Source: an uncultured Gammaproteobacteria bacterium
GTDB taxonomy: Bacteria; Patescibacteriota; Microgenomatia; UBA8517; UBA10165
Length of the DNA stretch: 64,000 nucleotides
Direction: 5' to 3'
Assembly: GCA_964366515.1 (NCBI GenBank)
Contig: CAYIUF010000001.1
Span: 51,388-115,387, forward strand
Of the stretch, positions 52,141 through 64,000 are shown in pieces. Below the pieces are notes generated by a model that had not been told where the DNA came from, searched no databases, and saw only the letters and a program-made list of their open reading frames with translations. Positions within the stretch are counted from its first letter, which is position 1; the number at the start of each line of letters is the position of its first letter. A program made the translations under genes and the position numbers.

Positions 52141-53646
52141 TTCAAATTTAAAATTCCCCTGCTGTTTTTGGGAATATTCTTACTAGCTTTGTTCCTCCGT
52201 ACGTACAATATCTTCTCAATTCCCATCTTTGCAGATGAGGCAATTTATATAAGATGGGCGCAGGTTATGCGCGCTGTCGCCTCCCTAAGATTTCTTCCAT
52301 TATCAGATGGCAAACAGCCCTTGTTTATGTGGATGATGATTCCGCTTCTCAAGGTGGTCACAGACCCTCTTGTGGCAGGCCGGATACTATCTGTGCTTTC
52401 GGGTCTTGGCGCTTTGGTGGGTGTATTTTTATTAACCAACAAACTGTTTGGCAAAAAACCTGCGTTGTTTGCGTCTTTTTTATATGCAATTTCCCCGTTT
52501 ACTGTTTTTTTCGACAGAATGGCACTAGTTGATAGCATGTTGGCAATGTTTGGGATCTGGTCACTCTACCTTGGTGTGCTAACTGCACAAACCTTAAGAC
52601 TGGACTACGCAATGTTAACCGGATTTGCCTTAGGCGGAGCATACCTAACAAAGTCCCCTGGAATATTCTTTCTTGCACTCCTTCCGACAACAATCTTGGC
52701 TGCCAAATGGAAAGACAACAAACATTCAAACTTAAATCAAGTTGGGAAACTCATCGGTTTGTGGAGTGTTTCATGGATTATCGGTCTCGGCTTGTATAAC
52801 ATCCTAAGGCTTGGCCCAGAATTTCATATGTTGGCAATAAGAAACAAAGATTATGTTTATAGCTTTGCAGATTTTTTCAAGCACCCCTTCGACCCGCTTA
52901 GGCCCCACATGGGGGATATACAATCATGGTTTTGGAATTTGCTGCCGGCTACAACTCTGGGCGCGGCGGTTTTCGGAATCGTAGCCAGTTTTAAAAAATC
53001 ATGGAAAATGGTACTACTTCTTCTTGCATGGTGCCTTGGCCCTCTGTTTGTCGAAGCCGCTTTAGCAAAAGTCTTTACAGCAAGATATGTCCTTTTTACT
53101 GCAACCCCCATGTTTATACTGGCTGGCGCAGGCGCCGCATTTGCGGCAAAGAAAATTAAAACTTTAACTGTTGTTGGACTACTTGGAGCAATGCCCCTCA
53201 CCATAAACTATCTACTTCTAACTGCTCCTGAAAAAGCCCCCCTCCACAAAAACGAAAGGGCAGGGTATCTGGAGGAGTGGACATCAGGAACAGGAATCAG
53301 AGAAATTGCAAAATATATAAAAGCTGAGAAGATAAAAAATCCTGAACAAAATATAGTTGTTGGGACAGAAGGTTATTTTGGAACCCTCCCGGACGGTTTA
53401 CAGATTTATTTATCAGATATTCCGGGAATTGTTGTAAGAGGGGTTGGGGTTACAATCTTTGATGTGGATTCTTCTCTTATTGACGCAAAAAAAGCAGGCA
53501 ACAGAGTATTTCTTGTAGTTAACTCAACGAGATTCAAGATTGAGAATCCAGAACTTAAGGGATTGGTTTTGGTAAATCAATATCTCAAAGCAAAAAGATC
53601 AAATGGCACTCAAGAAGCATTAACGCTTTGGGAGCTTGCCAAGTAA
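52096..53646 (+). CDS. ArnT/PMT-family GT-C glycosyltransferase (paralogue 3)
   Basis: IFADEAIYIRWAQ...ALFASFLYAISPF resembles the other two paralogues. The first 20 codons lie in the repeat tract, so the true start may be internal. Confidence 0.65.
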   Translation: MFKTFKFSNSFQISNFKFKIPLLFLGIFLLALFLRTYNIFSIPIFADEAIYIRWAQVMRAVASLRFLPLSDGKQPLFMWMMIPLLKVVTDPLVAGRILSVLSGLGALVGVFLLTNKLFGKKPALFASFLYAISPFTVFFDRMALVDSMLAMFGIWSLYLGVLTAQTLRLDYAMLTGFALGGAYLTKSPGIFFLALLPTTILAAKWKDNKHSNLNQVGKLIGLWSVSWIIGLGLYNILRLGPEFHMLAIRNKDYVYSFADFFKHPFDPLRPHMGDIQSWFWNLLPATTLGAAVFGIVASFKKSWKMVLLLLAWCLGPLFVEAALAKVFTARYVLFTATPMFILAGAGAAFAAKKIKTLTVVGLLGAMPLTINYLLLTAPEKAPLHKNERAGYLEEWTSGTGIREIAKYIKAEKIKNPEQNIVVGTEGYFGTLPDGLQIYLSDIPGIVVRGVGVTIFDVDSSLIDAKKAGNRVFLVVNSTRFKIENPELKGLVLVNQYLKAKRSNGTQEALTLWELAK

Positions 53647-54259
53647 GATCACCTTGAATAAAGCCGCAAGAGAACACTTCAAAAAAACCGACCCAATTTT
53701 ATATAAAGCACTAGAAAAAGTTGGTAAAGTGGAAATGGACAAGCCAAGAAGTCCGAAAGTATATTTTGAACATCTTGTTCGCTCAATTGTTTTCCAACAG
53801 TTGTCCGGGAAAGCTGCAAATACAATATATAGTAGATTCATGGCGTTGCTTCCAAAAGGAAAGGTGACCCCAGAAACTATCTTAAAACTAAGCGATGAAG
53901 AGATTCGTGGAGCAGGAATTTCAGGCCAGAAGATGGGCTATATCCGAGATTTATCGCAAAAGGTAAAAGATAAAGAAGTAGACCTTAACAATCTCCAAAA
54001 TTTAAGTGACGAGGAAGTAATAAGTGAGCTAACTAAAGTTAAAGGGATAGGCCGCTGGACAGCCGAAATGTTCCTCATGTTCACACTAACCCGCCCCGAC
54101 ATTTTCTCCCATGGCGACCTTGGCTTAAGGAATGCAATTAAAATGCTATACAAACTTGAAAACCCGACCCAAGAGCAAGTAGAACTCATTTGTGCAAAGT
54201 GGTCGCCACACAGAACATACGCTTGCAGAATCTTGTGGGAAAGCCTGGATAATCGCTGA
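53636..54259 (+). CDS. HhH-GPD DNA glycosylase (AlkA / 3-methyladenine glycosylase II-like)
   Basis: LTKVKGIGRWTAEMFLMF...D.GLRNAI helix-hairpin-helix GPD motif with catalytic Asp. Confidence 0.8.
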   Translation: MPSKITLNKAAREHFKKTDPILYKALEKVGKVEMDKPRSPKVYFEHLVRSIVFQQLSGKAANTIYSRFMALLPKGKVTPETILKLSDEEIRGAGISGQKMGYIRDLSQKVKDKEVDLNNLQNLSDEEVISELTKVKGIGRWTAEMFLMFTLTRPDIFSHGDLGLRNAIKMLYKLENPTQEQVELICAKWSPHRTYACRILWESLDNR

Positions 54260-54291
54260 AGCTCATATATCGAGTACGCTATAACAGATGA

Positions 54292-55149
54292 TCACTTCAA
54301 TATATAAATATCCTGGTTAGTCTCAGAAGTCCCCACAAGCTCGCCCGAGCCTCGGAGTATTGCCTCGTAGGGAAGGCAGTTGTTGCACCCGTTAGTGGAG
54401 CAGTTCAAAAGATTCAATTGCCTTGCAAGCTTAATTCGCTTTGCAACCTCCATCACCCTGTCAATTGCGTCTTTTTCTTCAGGTAAGACAGCCTCCTGTG
54501 GGGTGTCGCTTTTATCTATATACCAATAACTTGCTTTCGAAACTGGATACTTTTGAGTATTTTTAGTCAAAAGATAGTATATCGGAAGCTGTAAAGAGCC
54601 CTCAGACTCCTCATTTTTACCGGTCTTGAAGTCAACAATATGAACTGATCCATCGTCCATATATTCCAACCAATCAATCTTCCCACACAAAATTATGTTG
54701 TCTTCTTTGGAAAATAAATATCGCGGCAGTTCAAAATTAGATTTTGACCCGTCCTCTTCTCTTGGGGTGATTTTTATGGCCTTGTTTAGAAGTATTCCCG
54801 GATTTTTCTCTACTCGCGCAAGCATTGCCAAACCCCGCTCTTTGTATTCTGCTTCTTGCTCAGGAGTTCTAAACCCCCCCATTTTCCCTGAAACTTTTGC
54901 CCATGCTTCCTCAAACTTTTTAGATAAAGGCTCCTTAAATCTTTCGGCTGCAGGAAACGCAGACAAGGCCTCCAAAGTCTCATGAACCGCCTGCCCCAAA
55001 GCCAAAGGGGGAGACATAATGGTCATCTTCCTGTTTGTCGCCTTGCTCTTATACATATTTCGAAGATAATAAGACCGGGCACACTTCAAAAAATCTCCAA
55101 TTGAAGAATGAGATACCCAAACCGGCTGGCTTTCTCTGGGCTTGATCAC
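54292..55149 (-). CDS. PD-(D/E)XK nuclease with Cas4-like 4-Cys iron-sulfur module (RecB-family, stand-alone)
   Basis: N-terminal Cys (DFLKCARSYY), a VHIVDFKTGK core (DxK) consistent with a PD-(D/E)XK nuclease fold, C-terminal CSTNGCNNC triad. No cas genes or CRISPR nearby. Confidence 0.65.
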   Translation of the reverse strand: MIKPRESQPVWVSHSSIGDFLKCARSYYLRNMYKSKATNRKMTIMSPPLALGQAVHETLEALSAFPAAERFKEPLSKKFEEAWAKVSGKMGGFRTPEQEAEYKERGLAMLARVEKNPGILLNKAIKITPREEDGSKSNFELPRYLFSKEDNIILCGKIDWLEYMDDGSVHIVDFKTGKNEESEGSLQLPIYYLLTKNTQKYPVSKASYWYIDKSDTPQEAVLPEEKDAIDRVMEVAKRIKLARQLNLLNCSTNGCNNCLPYEAILRGSGELVGTSETNQDIYILK

Positions 55150-55259
55150 AAATACAATCTAGTGCAAATGAGGGAAGCGAGTCAATAAGAAATTGCAGAA
55201 TCTCAAATTAAGGGAATATACTATTAATAAACCGCCACTGATACTACGGCGGGTCAAAG

Positions 55260-55535
55260 GTGGTGAGAAATTTGAAACTTAATCCTCACAAAGTAGGTCT
55301 AACAGTAGGGACAATGTTTGTTATTGTCCATACCATCTGGGGTGTTGGCATAGCCCTTGGCTTTGCCCAAACACTTCTTGATTGGATGATGTCCTTGCAC
55401 TTTGTACAAGTGACCCATTCCTATTCAAGCTTTAACTTAACAAGCTTGCTTACTCTCTTAGTAGTTGCAGCAGTAAGGGGGTACGTAGGAGGCTACATCC
55501 TAGCCAGTGTATGGAACTACTGGAATAAAAAGTAA
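55260..55535 (+). CDS. hypothetical small membrane protein
   Basis: 91 aa, three TM helices, GTG start. Confidence 0.35.
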   Translation: MVRNLKLNPHKVGLTVGTMFVIVHTIWGVGIALGFAQTLLDWMMSLHFVQVTHSYSSFNLTSLLTLLVVAAVRGYVGGYILASVWNYWNKK

Positions 55536-55538
55536 AGG

Positions 55539-55808
55539 TTAGTATTGTCGGTACTTGTCGTGCGTACCGATATCAAGAAGAATTGCAGTTGTTTTATCAA
55601 TCCACATAAAAAATATCCTGCTCCCTTTATCAATTCTTATTGTCCAATAACGGGAGCCTTTAAGCTTTTCTAAATTCAAGCTAGGATGCTTCGGGTTGCT
55701 TACAAACACACGGAGAGCTTTTGTAGTTCTATTAAGAAGTTCGAAGTTGTTTCTCAAAAACTTTCTCCTCTCATGCAAGTATTTTTGAGAATATTTTAAT
55801 TCGATCAC
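55539..55808 (-). CDS. RelE/ParE-family type II toxin
   Basis: 89 aa. KLKGSRYWTIRIDKGSRIFF...DIGTHDKY matches the RelE/ParE core. Immediately downstream of the antitoxin. Confidence 0.7.
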   Translation of the reverse strand: MIELKYSQKYLHERRKFLRNNFELLNRTTKALRVFVSNPKHPSLNLEKLKGSRYWTIRIDKGSRIFFMWIDKTTAILLDIGTHDKYRQY

Positions 55809-55811
55809 GCC

Positions 55812-56081
55812 TTAGAAGCCCGCTTCTTTTCTCATTTCCTCAAAATCAGCCTCTAGCTCTTCTGGTGTAGAAATCGACTTTATTTTCCCAGACCTATATT
55901 CCTTTAAGGCCTCATCCGCGACCGCGTCTAATTGAAGCTTTTCCAAAAGATTAAGGCCAATAATTGCCCCCTGGGGCCTATTATTAGACATAACAACAAT
56001 GGGTTCTTTGGATTTATTTGCCTGCTCCAAAACCTTTTTATACCCTCTTTGAATTTGTCTTGCTGAAATCGTTGCTAACAT
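55812..56081 (-). CDS. Phd/YefM-family type II antitoxin
   Basis: 89 aa. RQIQRGYKKVLEQA...EPIVVMSNNRPQGAIIGL is typical of the Phd/YefM N-domain. 3-nt gap to the toxin gene. Confidence 0.7.
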   Translation of the reverse strand: MLATISARQIQRGYKKVLEQANKSKEPIVVMSNNRPQGAIIGLNLLEKLQLDAVADEALKEYRSGKIKSISTPEELEADFEEMRKEAGF

Positions 56082-56128
56082 ATGTAATCATATTATCACA
56101 TATGTTAATGTATGTCAAGTTGACATAC
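56078..56128 (-). promoter_or_regulatory. TA operon promoter TTGACA-17-TAATAT with operator palindromes
   Basis: Minus strand: TTGACA (56118-56113), 17 nt, TAATAT (56095-56090), 8 nt, ATG. A perfect 19-bp palindrome GTATGTCAAgTTGACATAC (56110-56128) overlaps the -35. Two copies of the self-complementary ACATATGT (56078-56085, 56098-56105) flank the -10. Confidence 0.6.
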
Positions 56129-56140
56129 AACAAGAGAACT

Positions 56141-56548
56141 TCATAAGTTCAAAATTAAGATAGAAAGTTGAAGTAGTGTGGCCAAAATGACCCAAGCCAA
56201 ATAAGGAACCTGTGCCCATGCAACAAAAGGTGAGTATTTATATATTGCCCGAATGCCCCAGACTATAGTCCCAAGGGCGACCAAAATGTCAATTGAAGCC
56301 AGAGGGACATTTTTTAAGCCAAAAAGAAGAGGAGTAAAAAGAAAATTGGCAATTAGATTTATAACAAACGGAGCCAAAACTTTCTTTGGAAACTTGCGAA
56401 TATAAACCTTGTAAAAGACATACCCAAAAGATAGAAAAATAACAGGATAAAGAACTCCCCAAATAGCTCCAATTGTTTCACCCGTTGGAGTCCAAGCAGG
56501 CTTTTCTAAAGCAGAGTACCATTCTTCCCAATTCCAAGAATCAAACAT
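56141..56548 (-). CDS. TspO/MBR tryptophan-rich sensory protein family
   Basis: W-rich 5-TM protein. LEKPAWTP, VLYPVIFLS, and NLIANFLFTPLLFG motifs. Confidence 0.75.
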   Translation of the reverse strand: MFDSWNWEEWYSALEKPAWTPTGETIGAIWGVLYPVIFLSFGYVFYKVYIRKFPKKVLAPFVINLIANFLFTPLLFGLKNVPLASIDILVALGTIVWGIRAIYKYSPFVAWAQVPYLAWVILATLLQLSILILNL

Positions 56549-56644
56549 AATTCGTCACCATTCTATATATTTAACTGAAACACAAACAGTAGATAAGTTC
56601 AATGGATCAAAGTCGAACGCGGACTAAGGATATCAAGCGGCGCT

Positions 56645-57469
56645 TTGGTGTGTTATTATACCTCGCCTCGCCAGACTTGGATGTTCAAAGAAAGATTTAC
56701 AAGAAGACAAGGTTTTGAAAGGGTGGCTGGCGTTGCAGGTGCAGCAGTCCTTGCCCCCGAACTTATCCCCGTAAGAATAAAAATCTTAACTTACCACGCT
56801 TTATCCTCTCCTGACCAAATCTACAACGATGTAATTGCCTTGATGAGATACGATGCAAATCGCACTCCAAAAACAGGTTACTTTCCGACTGATTTAGATA
56901 CTGCCGTTAAACTAATATCCCACGAGGAATCAGCAGACCAACATTTTCTTGTAGTGACATGCGACGATGGCCTTAGCTCACAAATGGATAATGCAAGAGC
57001 TGCGGCAGAAAGAATCGAGAAAGAGACAGGCAGCCCTTGCCCTGTGGAGTTCTTTGTTTTAACAAAGCTTGAAAATTCCCCAGACCCTGTTGAGGAAATG
57101 CCTGATGAAACCCTCTCCTACTTTGATGGAAATGAGGGCAAGCATGCAAACCTGGGGCAGTTAAAGACTATTGCCCGCGCAGGTATTCACAAAATTAGAA
57201 ACCATACGGTAAACCACGCTACGCTGCCTAATTTAACAATAGACGCAAGAAATGGAGAAGTTGAAGATGGGGAGAAGAAAGTGTTGGCAATCTATAGATC
57301 TGTAAAGGCAAAAACTCCGAGGAAAAAAGTGTTCGCATATCCAAGAGGGGCATATGCAGGACAAATTGATTATATATTAAGCCATTACGATATGGCGGTA
57401 AGCACAGAAGCAAAGGAAGTACATTTTATTTCCGATATGGGGCATATAGGAAGAGAAGGAAAAAGTTAA
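56645..57469 (+). CDS. polysaccharide deacetylase (NodB homology domain) family protein
   Basis: VVTCDDGLSS (TFDDG-type motif 1) and NHTVNHATL (His motif). Start uncertain. Confidence 0.5.
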   Translation: MVCYYTSPRQTWMFKERFTRRQGFERVAGVAGAAVLAPELIPVRIKILTYHALSSPDQIYNDVIALMRYDANRTPKTGYFPTDLDTAVKLISHEESADQHFLVVTCDDGLSSQMDNARAAAERIEKETGSPCPVEFFVLTKLENSPDPVEEMPDETLSYFDGNEGKHANLGQLKTIARAGIHKIRNHTVNHATLPNLTIDARNGEVEDGEKKVLAIYRSVKAKTPRKKVFAYPRGAYAGQIDYILSHYDMAVSTEAKEVHFISDMGHIGREGKS

Positions 57470-57654
57470 ATAAGGGCGAGAAGAAACTTTAAAGCAACGA
57501 GTACTAAAAACGCGAGGACAAACAAACGAGCATAATATGGAAGTGTTTTAACTACTGGAATTGAATCAACCAAAGCAACTGATTTTCGGGTGTGATGAAC
57601 TACTCTCCTAGAAGTTCTTCTCTTTGCAACTTTTCTTTTCTTTCGGGCAGCCAT
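57466..57654 (-). CDS. hypothetical small protein with basic N-terminus and C-terminal TM helix
   Basis: 62 aa. MAARKKRKVAKRRTSRR... then LFVLAFLVLVALKFLLALI. SecE-like architecture, but context does not support that call. Confidence 0.3.
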   Translation of the reverse strand: MAARKKRKVAKRRTSRRVVHHTRKSVALVDSIPVVKTLPYYARLFVLAFLVLVALKFLLALI

Positions 57655-57725
57655 GTGTAACTAACTATCTCTTAAAGGAGACATAAATGTCAAGTGGTTA
57701 TTTAAAAAACTGATAGAATAATAAT

Positions 57726-58151
57726 ATGGGGAAAAAACACAAAAGACGCAGGAAAAAGATTTTGATACTCACAAAACCTGTGGTGCCTGAAAAACTAATC
57801 ACCCTCTCAAGAAGCATACCGTTGAATGCAGCCCAGCAGGATAGGATATCTTTCTCAGTTTTGAGAAATGTAAAAAATAAACTAAGAAAAATTGAAAACA
57901 TCTCTTATGAAATTAACATCGATGGTAATTGGGAGTGGGTTGTTCGGTATGACGACCACGGAGGCAAGGGGTCGCTACATAAGCACTATCGAGTTTCGCT
58001 AAAAGACAATAGTGAAGTTGAATCCTCTACAGGAATAAAAAAGTATAAAAACAAAGATTACGAATTGACTTGGGTATGCAAAGACATTAAGCACAATCAT
58101 CAGACATATCGTTCAAAGTTTCTAAAAGCACAGGGACTTGACTTGTATTAA
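57726..58151 (+). CDS. hypothetical protein
   Basis: 141 aa with basic N-terminus. ATG 6 nt after the extended -10 TGATAGAAT (57711-57719). No family recognised. Confidence 0.45.
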   Translation: MGKKHKRRRKKILILTKPVVPEKLITLSRSIPLNAAQQDRISFSVLRNVKNKLRKIENISYEINIDGNWEWVVRYDDHGGKGSLHKHYRVSLKDNSEVESSTGIKKYKNKDYELTWVCKDIKHNHQTYRSKFLKAQGLDLY

Positions 58152-58206
58152 TCAAAAAACTACAGTATTATTACGATCCTCCCACACATAGACTGTAAAA
58201 GAAAAT

Positions 58207-58461
58207 ATGGGCACAAAGCTTCAAACTGAAAAGAATATAGATTTAACACACAAACTGATTGACTACTTGGTGAACGGCAAAGCTGTTCCTGAGCTACCAC
58301 AGGATGTGTCATTTGTCCCCTTTTCCAAAACTGACAAAAAACTTAATAAGGTAAATAACGAGCTGCTTGTAGCTATTTCCAAACAGGAGAAACCAGTCGC
58401 AATCGCTGAAGAACCGAAGTCTAGCGCAGAACCTTGGAAAATAACCCCGGTAAATTTTTAA
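58207..58461 (+). CDS. hypothetical protein
   Basis: 84-aa ORF convergent with, and overlapping by 4 nt, the restriction enzyme gene. Confidence 0.35.
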   Translation: MGTKLQTEKNIDLTHKLIDYLVNGKAVPELPQDVSFVPFSKTDKKLNKVNNELLVAISKQEKPVAIAEEPKSSAEPWKITPVNF

Positions 58462-61127
58462 CCCCCATTCTCAATGATTTCGATCTCCGATGGAGTAAGG
58501 CCGTAGAGTTTATAAACTTCTTGGTCAATTTTTTTATCAGCCTTTTCAATTTCCGAATTTACCAAATTCCACCTCTCAGAATTTCTTTCTAATGATTCCA
58601 GTTGCTTATTTAAGGACAGTATTTTTTCTGAAAGCTGCATAATCGCTTTGCTATCACCTGAAGAGGGTTCAATAATAGGAAATTTATCTAGATGCAGGTT
58701 TTTAAGTTGTGGCGTACTATTTCGATTAGTTACAGCAAAATTTTTGTAATAAATGTTAATGAGTTTTGAATTTAGAATAGCCAACAATAATAGTAGCTTA
58801 TCTCTCTCTACCCCATAAATAAAATACAAAGATTGTTCAGGATAAATACCAGAATCATCAAAAGTCGCTATAATATCGGATCCTGTCTTTCTAAGCAAAA
58901 TTTTATTTTTTACAGATAGTTTACTTTCATCTCGAGTTCTTCCGGTCAAATTTTTATCTGTGAAATTAAACCAATAAAATCCCTTAACCAAGTATCGTCC
59001 AATATTTTCACCCTTTATTATTCTAATTTCTTTTTCACTTTGTTTATTCAAGTGAATTTCAGTTGTCTTTGCACCGCAGCCTGAAGTAGATTCGGCAACC
59101 TGCGATAACAATTTTATCGATGGTTTTGCAAAGATTCTTTCAAATAGATTTTGTATCTTTTGATCGATATAGAAGAAGCTTTTATCATCTTGCTGATCAA
59201 ATACCTTCTGTACGATTTTTGAGTATCCTTGATTTTTATAGTCCCCAATCTCAATTATTTCTCGCAGCCCTGGTTTACTTTTTTGCAATACAAAAATCAT
59301 CGTGTCGGCAATAACGCCAGGAAAGTCAACATTAAAAAGTAGGTGTTTCAGTGTGAAGTTTTGTAAAATATGCTTTCTGAGTTCGACAAATTGCTGGTTA
59401 GAAGCGAGTCTGTCTGGAATAATAAAGCTAAAATACCCATCTTTTTTTAGTAACTCTAGACTCTTGTATATAAACATTTCGTACAAATTTGGCGCATATG
59501 TGTTGGACTTATATTTTTGCGTTAGAAACTCAATTTCTTTTTTAATGAAGTCATCACTTCTAAACTTTCCGCTCATTGATACCCATGGCGGATTCCCAAT
59601 CACAACATCAAAGCCTCCTTGTTTAAAAACCTCTGGGAACTCTTCCTCCCAAATGAAAGGCCTCTTTTCTCGATAATTTATCCCATAAACCGACCTTAGC
59701 TCAGTATCAGTTCCTGAGATCAAAGAGTTTCCGTTCTTAATATTTTTATCTAGGTTTGGTAACTTAAGTTTGCTGTCTAGAGCAAACAAGAGTAGGTTAA
59801 GTCGAGCAATTTCAATAGCTTGTGTGTCAAGGTCGACTCCGTAAATATTCTCCATAAGAATGGTTAGTTTTGTGAAAGTTCCCATAGGGCTTCCGAAGTC
59901 TAAGTGTTTCTGGTAAATAAAATTTGCTGCTTTAATCAAGAATGAACCCGAACCACAGGCAGGATCCAACACTTTTATTTTCTTTAGATCATTTATACTT
60001 TCACATTTATCCAAAACTGGTCCCAAGGTGTTTTTAACGATATAATCCACGACATAGTCGGGCGTGTAATAGATGCCCTGATCTTTTCTTTTCTTTGCAT
60101 CTTTATTAAGTGTGAGCCCTTTTTTTGATTTAAACAGTCTATAACCTAAATAGTTTTCATAAACACCACCAAGAACATCTGAGGGAATAACTTTAAAATC
60201 ATATTCGTAATACCCTTGTTTTCCCTGAAGTATTCGGAAAACCCTCTCAGTTGTGTTGTTCCAGTCTTCCCAGTCCTCAAGGGGATGCTCTGAAAATAAG
60301 TTTGAATCGTATATTTCATCCAACTCTCTAAACTTTGCAATCATAGATTTATATAATGGTATTTCATTACGAGTTTTACTGTTCTCCCAGTCTCGTATAA
60401 GCGGTATTAACGTTGGTGGTTCAATGCCTCGATCTTCTGCCACACGAATAAAAATTAGCCTATCTAAAAGTTTCTGTACACCTTCATCTAGCAGTTCATC
60501 GTCCACGTCGGGATTCATTTGTCCCAGTTTTTCTATTAATAGTTCTCGACACAAGGTAAGGTCTTTATACAAGGAAGAAGTAACAGAAACACGTTGAAGC
60601 TTTTTACCTATTTTTTCGGCTTCTTTATCAATTAGATTTTTTACAAACGCTTCTTTAGACAACAGCCATAGTTGGTCAAAGCGTTCTAGGTAATCGGTAT
60701 ATGGAATTTCGAAGTATAACTTGTCTGATAAATGGCTATCTATTACTTGAGCATTGAATACCTTTAGGCTTTCAAAGTCAGTGAGCACAGCCCATGTTGC
60801 GCCCTTATTCCAGGAGTATTTGATTGCTTGATTTGCATATTCTTCCCTGTGAAGGTCGCTCTTTAGGGGTTTAGCCTCCAAGTAGAATTTAAGTCTATTG
60901 CTTACATAAAACCCGAAATCAACACGACCATTTGATTGATGCTCCTCGGCAGTAACCTCACTCCTATCCGCAGTGTCCCAGCCAAGTGCATCGAATAAGG
61001 GACGGATGAAGCCATTCTTTGTGTCTTCCTCGGTGTATTTGTTTATATCCCCCGACTTCTTAACCAATTCATACTTTTCTATTAACTGCCTCACTTTCTC
61101 TCGCGCAGAGTGCATTGAATCATTCAT
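58458..61127 (-). CDS. Type IIG/IIL restriction-modification fusion enzyme (N-terminal PD-ExK endonuclease + gamma-class N6-adenine methyltransferase + target recognition domain; Eco57I/MmeI-like)
   Basis: N-terminal VDFGFYVSNRLKFYLEAKPL (D...ExK), MTase motif I LDPACGSGSFL, motif IV VIGNPPW. 889 aa. Confidence 0.85.
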   Translation of the reverse strand: MNDSMHSAREKVRQLIEKYELVKKSGDINKYTEEDTKNGFIRPLFDALGWDTADRSEVTAEEHQSNGRVDFGFYVSNRLKFYLEAKPLKSDLHREEYANQAIKYSWNKGATWAVLTDFESLKVFNAQVIDSHLSDKLYFEIPYTDYLERFDQLWLLSKEAFVKNLIDKEAEKIGKKLQRVSVTSSLYKDLTLCRELLIEKLGQMNPDVDDELLDEGVQKLLDRLIFIRVAEDRGIEPPTLIPLIRDWENSKTRNEIPLYKSMIAKFRELDEIYDSNLFSEHPLEDWEDWNNTTERVFRILQGKQGYYEYDFKVIPSDVLGGVYENYLGYRLFKSKKGLTLNKDAKKRKDQGIYYTPDYVVDYIVKNTLGPVLDKCESINDLKKIKVLDPACGSGSFLIKAANFIYQKHLDFGSPMGTFTKLTILMENIYGVDLDTQAIEIARLNLLLFALDSKLKLPNLDKNIKNGNSLISGTDTELRSVYGINYREKRPFIWEEEFPEVFKQGGFDVVIGNPPWVSMSGKFRSDDFIKKEIEFLTQKYKSNTYAPNLYEMFIYKSLELLKKDGYFSFIIPDRLASNQQFVELRKHILQNFTLKHLLFNVDFPGVIADTMIFVLQKSKPGLREIIEIGDYKNQGYSKIVQKVFDQQDDKSFFYIDQKIQNLFERIFAKPSIKLLSQVAESTSGCGAKTTEIHLNKQSEKEIRIIKGENIGRYLVKGFYWFNFTDKNLTGRTRDESKLSVKNKILLRKTGSDIIATFDDSGIYPEQSLYFIYGVERDKLLLLLAILNSKLINIYYKNFAVTNRNSTPQLKNLHLDKFPIIEPSSGDSKAIMQLSEKILSLNKQLESLERNSERWNLVNSEIEKADKKIDQEVYKLYGLTPSEIEIIENGG

Positions 61128-61171
61128 AATGAGTTAGAGAATTTTAGCAGAAAACCAGCCTTAAATATATC

Positions 61172-61978
61172 TTATAGATAGGAGGTCTGAGCAGCGACCC
61201 TTTTTAATTCGGTAAACCGACTTTGAGCCATCTCCAAGTATTTCGGATCAGAATCAATCCCCACAAAACTTCTGCCATACAAACTAGCAACAACCCCAGT
61301 TGTCCCACTCCCACAAAACGGATCTAAAATCGAATCACCTTTTCTTGTGCAAGACAAAATAATTCTCTTTAACAACTCTTGGGGTTTTTGGGTTGGATGC
61401 TTTCCAAACTTTCTTTCAATTAAACCTGGTGCATGTATTGCCCAGACAGAACCCATTTGTTCTCCCTGTTTTTTCAAAAAATCCTGCCCCCAGTCAGTCT
61501 TTTTTAAATACTCGTATGAAAACTTATGTTTCGCAATCTTTTCTTTCTTTGCCCAAATTAGGGACTCATGTTGGGCTTTAAACATTCTGCCCGAAATGTT
61601 ATCCGCAGATTTTGGTTTATACCAAGCAATCTCGTTTAATATGTGGAAACCTTCCAGTTCAAGTGCATACCCGCATTTGTAGATATTATGGTATGTTCCG
61701 GACAGCCATATTGTGCCGTCTGGCTTTAATAACCTTCGGCACTCACTTATCCACTTTTTGTGGAACTTAAAATCTTCCTCTACTCCTTCGGACTTATCCC
61801 ACCCTCCTTTGTTTACAGAAACTAACCTCCCAGACTCACTTGTAAATCCGCCATTCGACAATCTGTAGGGAGGATCAGCATAAATCATGTCAAAACTGTC
61901 TGCGGGAAGTTGAGGGAGAATTTCTAAACTATTACCGTGATATAACGTAAATCTGTCCTTTTGAAAATAGGGGTTCAT
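61172..61978 (-). CDS. beta-class DNA methyltransferase (N6-adenine or N4-cytosine), stand-alone
   Basis: Motif IV IYADPPY precedes motif I ILDPFCGSGTT (beta-class order). 268 aa. Immediately upstream of, and co-oriented with, the IIG enzyme. Confidence 0.9.
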   Translation of the reverse strand: MNPYFQKDRFTLYHGNSLEILPQLPADSFDMIYADPPYRLSNGGFTSESGRLVSVNKGGWDKSEGVEEDFKFHKKWISECRRLLKPDGTIWLSGTYHNIYKCGYALELEGFHILNEIAWYKPKSADNISGRMFKAQHESLIWAKKEKIAKHKFSYEYLKKTDWGQDFLKKQGEQMGSVWAIHAPGLIERKFGKHPTQKPQELLKRIILSCTRKGDSILDPFCGSGTTGVVASLYGRSFVGIDSDPKYLEMAQSRFTELKRVAAQTSYL

Positions 61979-62017
61979 CTTGGTCGGGACAGATTACCCA
62001 GATGATATACTCGGGCA

Positions 62018-62650
62018 ATGGAGAAGACAATCAGGGATTTTGTAGATAAACTCGCAAAAACAAAAGCCCCAGAAAACGCAGTGAATATGTTCTCATTTGA
62101 CGTTGCCCAAAACGAAACGCGCAGAAACAATTTGTATTTGTATCTTTCTCAAATGGCCGAAAAGAAGCCTGAGGTACTATTAGTAGGAGAAGCCCCGGGA
62201 TATCAGGGCATGCGTTGGACCGGCATGCCGTTTGGATCTGAATACCACATTCTCCGTGGCATTCCCGAAATTGGAATGTTCGGAGAAGAAAGAGGATACA
62301 AAAAAACTGACGAATGGGACAAGGTTTGGAAAGAACCCTCCTCAACAATCGTCTGGGGGACCATGAAAAGTATTACGAACGTTCCGCTAATTTGGGCTTC
62401 TTACCCATATCACCCACACCAGAGTGGAAAACCCCTAACAAACCGTGCCCCCTCAAATATCGAGCTAGAAATAGGCCGACCATTTTTGGCGGACTTGATA
62501 GAAATCTACAAAATCAAGAAAGTTTTAGCAGTTGGCTATAAAGCAGTTACAACTTTGGGTAAAATGGGAATTGAAGCTCCATATATAAGGCACCCATCCC
62601 ATGGCGGAGCAAAACTATTTGCCGAAGGGATCAGATTTCATTTGGACTAA
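62018..62650 (+). CDS. uracil-DNA glycosylase superfamily protein (GEAPG / HPS motifs, no Fe-S cysteines)
   Basis: Motif A LLVGEAPGYQG...GMPF and motif B IRHPSHGG. No Cys in the whole protein. ATG 6 nt after the extended -10 TGATATACT (62003-62011). Confidence 0.55.
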   Translation: MEKTIRDFVDKLAKTKAPENAVNMFSFDVAQNETRRNNLYLYLSQMAEKKPEVLLVGEAPGYQGMRWTGMPFGSEYHILRGIPEIGMFGEERGYKKTDEWDKVWKEPSSTIVWGTMKSITNVPLIWASYPYHPHQSGKPLTNRAPSNIELEIGRPFLADLIEIYKIKKVLAVGYKAVTTLGKMGIEAPYIRHPSHGGAKLFAEGIRFHLD

Positions 62651-64000
62651 GGAAGTTTTTCCAAGGGGTTTGTTCTCCACCCACGAAATACGATGTAGTT
62701 TATTGGATCTCTAATCTCAAAAACTAATTCTAAATTGTGTTCTTTCGCTTGCCCAGGAGAAATTGCAAGTTCATCTCCTACAATAATCTGTGCCCTTAAT
62801 GGATCTTTTCCCCAATCAAGGTTTCTGGTCTCAATGTTTGCGAATTTATAATAGTCATCAAAAAACAAATCTGTGTAATATCTATCCTTTATTCCTTTGT
62901 CGGTTTCCATTTGAAATTTATCTGGAGGATATTGGAGATGGAATGCTAACATTACGTATGCAGGTTTTATTCTTGAACGCTCAATTAAAAAATGAGCATT
63001 CGGCCTTTTTTTGATTTCTTCGGCAAGCTGTTGGAAACCATAACCCCAAACCTTTGCCCTTTCTGCAGGCAGGAAAACAAAATATGATCTCCAAAGAAGA
63101 ACTAAAGACCCAAGTATTAATAGAATTGCCAAAGAAAGCCAAAGTTTAATCTGCCTTCCTGCAATTAGCTTATCTATTCCAAGTGTTGTAATTGCGATTA
63201 TGGGCAAAACAAGTGGAAACGCTCTATGCGAGGCAAACGGGTCACGGGTTAATGCAGCAGGCAGGGGAGAAATCAGCATAAGCATTATCAAAACCCGATA
63301 AATCATCTCTTTTCTTCTCTTCCATAAAAAATACAACCCAACTAAATATGGAATAGCCATCCACGGGTAAAAAACAGCCAGTTCAGGCATAGATCTTTGG
63401 AGATCAGGGTCCGGAATAAAAAACAGAGGCCCTGGGGAAAAATATTGAATATAATTTGCCAGAAATTCACGCAGAAAACCTAAAAGTATAGAAACCTGCA
63501 TAGGCAGAAAATGTGCTATCTTTTCTGCCTGGGATGCAACTGTTGCTGAAAAGAGACTCTTCTTTGGGAAGAAAGCCGGAGTAAACAAAATAGTAAGATG
63601 TGGAATTTGTGTGATGAGGCCCACCGCAAAGGCCGGGATTAATTCAAATTTTTTTATCTTTGAAAATAAATCTTTTCTAAAGAGGAGTGTGAAACCAATT
63701 ACGTACAGCGGCGCCAGGAAGCGCTCAGTATATGCTGTATAGGAAGAAGCAGAAAGAAAAAAAATACTTAGAGCAAAAAGTGCCGGCCTTTTTAAACCCC
63801 AGATAGAAAACAAAACCCCCAAGCAAAAAAACAAGAAGGCCAAGCCAACCTCATCTCCAAGGCGGCTATACAAAACTACCCATGGAGATATTGTAAAGAG
63901 TAAAGTTCCAAGAAGAACTGAAGTTTTGTTTATTTTTAAAAGCCTCAGGAACAAAAAAGTAGTGACAATCAAAAGAAGTCCCGTCAAAGCCGCAACAAAC
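62647..64000 (-). CDS. polytopic GT-C-type membrane protein (putative glycosyltransferase), probably 5' partial at window edge
   Basis: At least 12 TM helices. The reading frame stays open upstream of the TTG called by the tool to the end of the window. Confidence 0.45.
   Translation of the reverse strand, partial: FVAALTGLLLIVTTFLFLRLLKINKTSVLLGTLLFTISPWVVLYSRLGDEVGLAFLFFCLGVLFSIWGLKRPALFALSIFFLSASSYTAYTERFLAPLYVIGFTLLFRKDLFSKIKKFELIPAFAVGLITQIPHLTILFTPAFFPKKSLFSATVASQAEKIAHFLPMQVSILLGFLREFLANYIQYFSPGPLFFIPDPDLQRSMPELAVFYPWMAIPYLVGLYFLWKRRKEMIYRVLIMLMLISPLPAALTRDPFASHRAFPLVLPIIAITTLGIDKLIAGRQIKLWLSLAILLILGSLVLLWRSYFVFLPAERAKVWGYGFQQLAEEIKKRPNAHFLIERSRIKPAYVMLAFHLQYPPDKFQMETDKGIKDRYYTDLFFDDYYKFANIETRNLDWGKDPLRAQIIVGDELAISPGQAKEHNLELVFEIRDPINYIVFRGWRTNPLEKLP

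Follow-up and report, generated by a model that had tools for sequence, protein, structure and literature searches.

The uracil-DNA glycosylase (UDG) superfamily, characterized by motif A (G-x-x-P-G…P-F), motif B (H-P-S, also termed motif 2), and the UDG fold, comprises families that differ in their versions of these motifs. SMUG1 (family 3) carries its catalytic Asn in GMNPG and has HPSPRN as motif 2. Family 4 enzymes (UDGa) combine a GE(A/G)PG motif and an N-R-x-P motif with four Cys for a [4Fe-4S] cluster, and family 5 enzymes (UDGb) possess an Fe-S cluster and a GLAPG/A motif 1 that offers no polar residue for catalysis. For family 4, a published study assigns stabilization of the leaving group to the His of motif 2 and coordination of the water to the Asn of motif 3 (PMC5387724). 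The hallmarks of UdgX, as given in a second study, are a GEQPG motif, a KRRIH R-loop, and an Fe-S cluster (PMC10359453). The DR0022-like acid UDG of Deinococcus radiodurans represents a family-4-like clade in which motif 1 begins with Leu (LEAP), and its E44A, N90A, and H159A variants each lose activity (PMC9796141). UDG-fold enzymes can also be anti-phage effectors, often in defence islands (PMC11078745; bioRxiv 10.1101/2025.10.29.685425; bioRxiv 10.64898/2026.02.25.707755). Brig1, Brig2, and Brig3, compared here by their descriptions, share the UDG-superfamily fold, and some of them adjoin restriction-modification (R-M) or BREX genes.

The UDG-like gene described here lies in a 64-kb stretch of DNA that was analysed as a whole (the window) and is divergently paired with a DNA methyltransferase (MTase) gene. 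With a rough probability of 0.7, we interpret its product as a repair glycosylase encoded by a backbone gene at a variable flank, with the MTase pairing being a local accident. With one identical protein on record and 156 homologues, the best of them at E = 1e-101, the ORF is evidently a real gene. The encoded protein contains motif A (G57-E-A-P-G-Y62…T-G69-M-P-F72), motif B (R191-H-P-S-H-G-G197), and motif 3 (T141-N-R-A-P145), along with further key residues E106, H132-P-H134, and the strand β2 segment L124-I-W-A127. The Pfam UDG model PF03167, present in most homologues, gives 27.3 bits, just above its gathering score of 24.3 (E = 4.4e-6). Superfamily membership, claimed in the first-pass annotation from GEAPG…GMPF as motif A and HPS as motif B, is upheld by this match. 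The NCBIfam family 4 models score far under their cutoffs (TIGR00758, 29 bits against 125.3; NF040953, 23 against 250). Source names for the homologues, where given, are the generic "uracil-DNA glycosylase" or "hypothetical protein". The features of the locus are collected in Table 1.

Table 1. Position and strand of the UDG-like gene, its neighbours, and the promoter-like elements between them
Feature	Position in window	Strand	Remarks
HhH-GPD superfamily DNA glycosylase	53624..54256	+	Pfam HhH-GPD 2.2e-17; orthologue in L083
Cas4/RecB-like PD-(D/E)XK nuclease, 285 aa	54292..55149	-	Pfam PDDEXK_1 1.9e-22
Insert, ~6 kb	55150..61171		Absent from syntenic L083, where PDDEXK_1 and MTase are 74 bp apart
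Type IIG R-M enzyme, 889 aa	58458..61127	-	HSDR_N-like N-terminal nuclease region, Eco57I/N6_Mtase, TaqI_C (Pfam)
Beta-class N6_N4 DNA methyltransferase, 268 aa, DPPY, CcrM/HinfI-like	61172..61978	-	Pfam N6_N4_Mtase 1.9e-56
Divergent intergenic gap, 39 bp	61979..62017		Between start codons of UDG-like gene and MTase
Promoter-like site TTGTCT-17-TATCAT	62030-62002	-	Consensus match; no more frequent than in shuffled sequence
Extended -10-like box TGaTATACT	62003..62011	+	Followed by 6 nt (cgggca), then ATG; candidate leaderless promoter
UDG-superfamily glycosylase gene (Cys-free, 210 aa)	62018..62650	+	ATG start; ORF translation
Convergent membrane-protein gene	62647..64000	-	4-bp overlap with UDG-like stop codon; runs off window

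An AlphaFold2 model of the UDG-like protein, built on 28 family sequences with a pLDDT of 94.5 and a pTM of 0.91, adopts a predicted UDG fold that is nearest to SMUG1. Fold comparison gave 16.5 for G. metallireducens SMUG1 over 188 of 210 residues, 15.5 for P. heparinus SMUG2 over 187 residues, 13.8 for family 4 (T. maritima) over 147 residues, 13.5 for UdgX over 148 residues, and 13.2 for family 5 over 146 residues; Foldseek ranks these five in the identical order. The family profile matches Xenopus SMUG1 over the full length (HMMER, E = 8.5e-7), pairing GEAPG with GMNPG, P-F with P-F, and HPS with HPS, and hhalign gives a homology probability of 96.4% between the family and SMUG1. A second, local profile match places "(S/T)NRAP..E" on the family 4 segment "NNRDPEEDE" (E = 8e-5). 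The motif A Glu, in its context, aligns with the catalytic position of both SMUG1 and family 4. The motifs had at first been read as a family 4/5 arrangement; motifs 1 and 3 are indeed family-4-like, yet the full fold and the full-length alignment are closest to SMUG1. We rejected as insufficient a description of the protein as a family 4 or 5 enzyme that has lost its cluster, because the full-length fold and alignment favour SMUG1 and SMUG2.

Comparison with individual families reveals where the UDG-like protein departs from each. With SMUG1 (PDB 5h93, 1oe4, 9gm2) it shares the fold and full-length similarity at ~20% identity, but the catalytic Asn of GMNPG is replaced by Glu (GEAPG), motif 2 is RHPSHGG instead of HPSPRN, motif 3, (S/T)NRxP, is of the family 4 type, and β2 ends in Ala in the window's clade. 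SMUG2 (Pedobacter heparinus, PDB 5h0k) is 15% identical, differs in its motifs, and matches the family profile over residues 20-88 only (E = 2e-4). In comparison with family 4 UDGa (T. maritima 1l9g, S. tokodaii 4zbx, T. thermophilus 1ui0), 147 residues align, and both family 4 motifs are present as G57EAPG61 and N142-R-A-P145, the motif-3 segment being aligned to 4zbx by HMMER. The protein nevertheless lacks the four Fe-S cysteines, the Cys that follows the motif-3 segment in 4zbx being Gly in the UDG-like family, and it carries an insertion of ~35-40 residues between motifs 1 and 3. Relative to family 5, it has a polar residue in motif 1 and no cluster ligands, and relative to UdgX, it has GEAPG, no KRRIH-like loop, and no Cys. 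DR0022 and the UDG-like protein are alike in the family-4-like motif-1 Glu, the motif-3 Asn, and the motif-2 His, but motif 1 is LEAP in the former and GEAP in the latter family, with G57 invariant, and the Glu-to-Asn spacing is 46 residues in DR0022 and 84 in the UDG-like protein. Judged from model and sequence, the protein joins a fold like that of SMUG1 and SMUG2 to motifs 1 and 3 of family 4 character and a motif 2 of its own, and it lacks defining features of families 3, 4, and 5, of UdgX, and of the DR0022-like clade.

The first-pass annotation had also described the protein as devoid of cysteine and unable to bind a 4Fe-4S cluster, and both statements hold: the translation contains 0 Cys in 210 residues, and no conserved four-Cys set was found among 262 family members of at least 170 residues. 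Of these, 39 have no Cys at all and 169 have two or fewer, and the sole Cys that occurs frequently is the residue after GYxG of motif 1. The absence of an Fe-S cluster is, on this sequence evidence, a property of the whole family, and since the family has no conserved Cys ligands, the lack of Cys is normal for it and not peculiar to the window protein. SMUG1 and SMUG2 are likewise not known to carry an Fe-S cluster, which would fit the nearness of the family to both.

Residues G57, E58, A59, P60, G61, Y62, F72, E106, N142, R143, P145, R191, H192, P193, G196, and G197 are invariant or nearly invariant in the family. These conserved motif residues, together with the parallels to family 4 and DR0022, argue that the UDG-like protein has what an active monofunctional glycosylase would need. 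The product is probably a stand-alone monofunctional DNA glycosylase belonging to a widespread subfamily without an iron-sulfur cluster. In the proposed mechanism, a deaminated pyrimidine, most likely uracil, would be flipped into the pocket with F72 stacking on the base, E58 and N142 would position the attacking water, and H192 would stabilize the leaving base, with the abasic site then passing to base-excision repair. The analyses establish family membership, fold, conserved residues, distribution, and synteny; substrate, catalytic roles, and repair function are inferred by analogy, and base-excision repair of uracil or a related lesion appears the likeliest function. In small-genome Patescibacteria, the UDG-like protein may be a uracil-repair enzyme.

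Substrate specificity is less certain at one position. Residue 127, at the C-terminal end of strand β2 (DSSP), is Asn in 125/207 sequences; Ala takes its place in 66, which form the window's clade, and Ser in 10 from Actinomycetota. This switch co-varies with positions 67 (L→R/W), 73 (T→S/C/G), and 198 (K→A) near the active site. HMMER pairs residue 127 with the "HN" asparagine of SMUG1, which we take to be the base-reading residue, whereas hhalign pairs the family HPH (P133) with the SMUG1 HNH instead; because the two programs disagree, the equivalence of residue 127 to the SMUG1 Asn is ambiguous. The exchange of Asn for Ala on β2 and the accompanying changes nonetheless mean that uracil specificity is not assured in the window's clade. 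A housekeeping enzyme whose remodelled pocket accepts non-uracil or a broader range of bases (hypoxanthine, xanthine, 5-substituted uracils, or mismatched bases) is therefore a tentative possibility, to which the Asn/Ala/Ser switch, its co-varying partners, and the HMMER placement point. The hhalign pairing argues against it, as does the fact that every other catalytic motif residue is intact, and repair of uracil or a related lesion remains the reading that we prefer. The switch at the end of β2 provides a handle on the evolution of specificity in the UDG superfamily.

A distribution scan with a degenerate pattern, using one genome per species, detected a relative of the UDG-like protein in at least 495 species genomes. 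The matches listed include Patescibacteria, Chloroflexota, Actinomycetota, Bacillota, Bacteroidota, Cyanobacteria, and Campylobacterota, with Blackburnbacteria and Saccharibacteria (Patescibacteria), Arthrobacter and Agromyces (Actinomycetota), and Clostridia among the groups represented. When 1.84 billion cluster representatives (50% identity) were searched exhaustively with an HMM, 784 matched at E<=1e-30, and the looser threshold of E<=1e-10 gave 1567; almost all of these are stand-alone proteins of 200-230 aa. Phage records searched by tblastn contained no relative. Distant homologues (31-39% identity) occur on 45 plasmids, some of them adjoining MazG-like pyrophosphohydrolases, type IV secretion genes, or polyvalent LPD proteins; a mobile-element branch of the family therefore exists, distinct from the window's clade. 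One Sphingobium copy has a degenerate motif 1. No published characterization of a subfamily with the motifs GEAPG(Y) and HPSHGG, whether as an Fe-S-free family-4-like or a SMUG-like enzyme, was found in the literature searched, from which a sizeable, phylogenetically broad, Fe-S-free UDG branch is thus missing. The novelty is limited to the level of an enzyme subfamily and does not extend to a new defence system.

Comparison with the syntenic relative L083, whose UDG-like protein is 65% identical, separates backbone from cargo at the locus. The gene order in L083 is DHH, PMT_2, GT2, PMT, (YfhO), HhH-GPD, PDDEXK_1, N6_N4 MTase, NUDIX, an 88-aa gene, the UDG-like gene, and the membrane-protein gene. 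The window shares this backbone in two blocks, 48.8-55.2 kb and 61.2-64 kb, whose proteins are 57-77% identical to their L083 counterparts. The Type IIG gene shares the insert with a 91-aa ORF, a Phd/YefM antitoxin and its putative toxin, and genes for TspO, a polysaccharide deacetylase, DUF7718, and DUF5647; flanking direct repeats and a tRNA were sought at the insert, and none were detected. PADLOC identifies the 889-aa enzyme as REase_MTase_IIG (1.4e-92). Compared with a window average of 42%, GC content falls to 33-37% from 58.4 to ~60.8 kb, a segment that takes in most of the Type IIG gene; the UDG-like gene is at ~43% and the MTase gene at 40.5%. The low GC content and the absence of the Type IIG gene from relatives indicate that it is acquired cargo.

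The 268-aa MTase, whose match to the NCBIfam CcrM-like model is below cutoff, has orthologues at 77-81% identity in L001 and L083, both without the Type IIG gene; its orthologues in L174 and L175 flank the UDG-like gene on the other side. From its orthology, the MTase is a conserved backbone gene of the lineage and not part of the Type IIG cargo, and its candidacy as a Type IIG partner was rejected on the 77-81% orthologues in relatives that have no Type IIG. The 285-aa PDDEXK_1 nuclease likewise has orthologues in L083, L175, and L097, and in relatives it adjoins the MTase within the backbone. The HhH-GPD glycosylase constitutes a second base-excision enzyme in the backbone block. On the opposite side, the membrane-protein gene, which has orthologues in L001 and L083 and a 542-aa homologue in L081, opens a conserved cluster of glycosylation and membrane-protein genes.

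The coordinates confirm the divergent arrangement of the UDG-like and MTase genes reported in the first-pass annotation, including the length of the gap. The NUDIX and 88-aa genes that lie between the two in L083 are missing from the window, and it is their absence that accounts for the close pairing, which would accordingly represent a local accident. The UDG-like gene itself probably belongs to the chromosomal backbone in a groundwater Patescibacterium that is related to Candidatus Blackburnbacteria.

The tight coupling to an R-M module proposed from the window alone is not supported by a wider survey. Among 80 species genomes with a UDG-like homologue, examined over ±10 kb, a homologue of the window MTase (phmmer) lies near the UDG-like gene at one locus, that of the closest relative, and a Type IIG homologue (889 aa; phmmer) within 10 kb at none. 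Conserved co-occurrence with Type IIG genes, the check put forward with the original proposal and the mark of a Type IIG accessory, is thus lacking at all 80 loci. The 148 immediate neighbours include baeRF families (13), thiolase, aldo-keto reductase, and NUDIX (3) as recurrent Pfam families, and no MTase or REase family recurs among them. All-against-all clustering of neighbours within 4 kb produced families of at most 17/80 loci, the largest being an HtrA-like protease and a baeRF protein, both derived from Chloroflexota synteny. A family widespread without R-M neighbours, the outcome named at the outset as speaking against coupling, is largely what we observe: the relatives span at least 495 species, with no recurrent R-M partner.

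A role as a defence accessory finds equally little in these surveys. The UDG-like protein itself has no PADLOC match. At 18 loci of the window's clade, PADLOC identified a few defence genes both among the 136 genes within 3.5 kb and among the 139 genes at 3.5-10 kb; they are no commoner in the near set than in the far set, and no partner recurs. It is very unlikely that the protein acts like Brig1/2/3 as an accessory to defence or R-M, excising uracil or a modified base from invading DNA in cooperation with neighbouring R-M systems. The precedent of UDG-fold anti-phage effectors would be compatible with such a role, as would the plasmid-borne distant homologues, the R-M and Shedu genes beside the UDG-like gene in close relatives (described below), and an Mrr gene upstream of it in L088, a more distant clade member (~46% identity). 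The conserved placement in defence islands or mobile elements expected of a Brig-type enzyme was not found across the 80 species genomes, and housekeeping repair is retained as the main reading.

R-M and defence genes are enriched on the flank of the UDG-like gene within this lineage. Most contigs of the closest relatives (>=61% identity) carry some MTase or R-M gene within ~3 kb of the UDG-like gene, and the cargo differs from one to the next. L178 (71% identity) has a divergent C5 cytosine MTase 102 bp from the UDG-like gene; L174 (69%) has a CfrBI-type REase and a 392-aa MTase on the same flank and the 268-aa MTase orthologue on the other side; and L082 (68%) has NmeDI_C and Shedu (SduA_C) nearby. 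L175 (61%) has PDDEXK_1 on one side and the MTase orthologue 46 bp downstream of the UDG-like gene, and the 3.4-kb contig of L176 (63%) contains no MTase, R-M, PDDEXK_1, or Shedu genes. In the window, R-M genes are found at the UDG-like site only, accounting for 2/63 large ORFs. Such neighbourhoods make some functional link conceivable. The flank opposite to the R-M cargo is conserved core synteny, formed by the glycosylation and membrane cluster. Because the cargo varies while the UDG-like gene is always present and the opposite flank is conserved, a hotspot is a better description than a fixed partnership. The UDG-like gene looks like a core gene bordering an integration hotspot, and its variable flank would have taken up different R-M or defence cassettes in different relatives.

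The same comparison bears on two further interpretations. In the first, the UDG-like gene, the 268-aa MTase, and the Cas4-like nuclease are functionally linked in a lineage-specific DNA-maintenance cluster that also includes HhH-GPD and NUDIX. In the window, L001/L083, L174, and L175, no more than ~1.3 kb separates the UDG-like gene from an MTase orthologue, and since the orthologues occupy different sides of the UDG-like gene, proximity survives rearrangement; a PDDEXK_1 orthologue is also nearby in the window, L083, L175, and L097, and elsewhere NUDIX is an immediate neighbour in 3/148 cases. The genomes with MTase proximity all come from one narrow lineage, however, in which shared ancestry may explain the arrangement; the MTase is not nearby in L082 or L176; and outside the lineage the link is absent (80 loci, 148 neighbours). 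To our knowledge, no mechanism connects an N6-adenine-type (DPPY) MTase with uracil excision, and a functional link of this kind is improbable. The second interpretation is similarly doubtful: the window's clade, with Ala for Asn on β2 and the co-varying changes at positions 67, 73, and 198, would be a functionally new UDG family that prefers, for example, a modified pyrimidine or a purine deamination product to plain uracil, and its constant position at the hotspot edge in Blackburnbacteria-like genomes would reflect a role against foreign DNA or in the cleanup of R-M and methylation damage. A hotspot flank combined with a local deletion explains the closeness to R-M genes better than function does, which provides a lesson for the scanning of genomes.

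The intergenic gap contains two promoter-like elements of opposite orientation, the minus-strand -10 box overlapping the plus-strand TGaTATACT box back to back. An extended -10 element 6 nt before the ATG and leaderless transcription had both been proposed for the UDG-like gene; the box is present as described, and leaderless expression is plausible from the sequence. A generic scan for -35/-10 promoters and terminators yielded no more than shuffled sequence would; it passed over the extended -10 box because no -35 element is present. Related boxes precede the UDG-like gene in other genomes, with TGgTATACT located 8 nt (L082) and 12 nt (L084) before the ATG, and TATAAT-like boxes located 6 nt before it in L088 and L090. 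Across the window, a -10-like box lies 5-13 nt before the start codon in 14/63 genes, and an SD-like motif occurs in 9/63. The leaderless-type start seems to be a genome-wide tendency, not one particular to the UDG-like gene.

The UDG-like gene, which encodes a 210-aa Cys-free UDG-superfamily protein, adjoins a DNA-metabolism block conserved in this lineage, composed of an HhH-GPD glycosylase, a Cas4/RecB-like PD-(D/E)XK nuclease, and the divergent N6_N4 MTase, to which a NUDIX hydrolase also belongs in relatives. A ~6-kb segment carrying the Type IIG enzyme gene is present in the window and absent from L083, a syntenic relative with the same backbone gene order. GC content drops to 33-37% across most of the Type IIG gene, and neither flanking repeats nor a tRNA was found for the segment. 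Directly beside the Type IIG gene, the DUF7718 gene encodes a 141-aa product and the DUF5647-like gene an 84-aa product whose match is under the Pfam cutoff, and the latter gene shares 4 bp with the Type IIG gene at the end of the Type IIG gene. A palindrome, probably the operator of the toxin-antitoxin pair, extends across the ATG (at 56081) of the Phd/YefM antitoxin gene.

Coordinates of features around the UDG-like gene and its homologues
Feature	Location	Strand	Details
DNA-metabolism block	window 53624-55149; L083 6367-9365
Segment with Type IIG enzyme	window 55150-61171		Phd/YefM antitoxin and putative toxin, TspO, polysaccharide deacetylase, DUF7718, DUF5647, Type IIG enzyme
Palindrome	window 56076-56107		16+16 nt, no spacer, 88% complementary
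DUF7718 and DUF5647-like gene pair	window 57726-58461		directly beside Type IIG gene
Candidate MTase -10 box	within window 62002-62030	minus	TATCAT, with TTGTCT 17 nt upstream
Candidate UDG-like gene -10 box	within window 62002-62030	plus	TATACT
baeRF upstream of UDG-like gene	L010, L022, L041, and other Chloroflexota loci
Distant plasmid homologue	L172 4823-6702		Sphingobium plasmid pTA15-1; 31-33% identity (both plasmid homologues)
Distant plasmid homologue	L173 5992-6621		Pseudomonas mendocina pPME5

The closest non-identical relative, the L178 homologue from the same groundwater sample series (71% identity), is flanked by a divergent C5 cytosine DNA methyltransferase and a convergent PaaX/Cas2-like protein (L178 2-178 and 954-1202). 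At L083 9940-10000, in-frame sequence ahead of the homologue's called GTG start codes for the N-terminal residues of the family (SFIDKLAKV…). This sequence comes after a TAG and has no canonical start codon; possible explanations are a misassigned start, an N-terminal truncation, or damage to the gene. Elsewhere, a bacterial eRF1-like protein (baeRF; baeRF_family10/2/3) is the immediate upstream neighbor of the UDG-like gene on the same strand in 13 of 80 species genomes. Neighbors of the distant plasmid homologues include type IV secretion genes, a MazG-like NTP pyrophosphohydrolase, and either LPD7/LPD23 polyvalent proteins or an integrase. Motif 1 is degenerate in the Sphingobium copy (ARDLG, P-L), which may be inactive.

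The divergent MTase and the UDG-like gene have candidate -10 boxes that lie back-to-back and share 2 bp, and RNA polymerase could be contested between the two candidate promoters. Among the 63 window genes (ORFs of at least 100 aa), a Shine-Dalgarno-like motif is present in only nine, and a -10-like hexamer ends 5-13 nt ahead of the start codon in 14, with TGnTACAAT at 6 nt being a frequent form (e.g., 17220, 32342, 38674, and 57726). Together, these sequence features suggest that leaderless mRNAs are frequent in the source organism. One of the 63 large window ORFs matches Pfam Topoisom_I (E 1.4e-39), the catalytic core of the eukaryotic-type topoisomerase IB, an enzyme type uncommon for a bacterium.
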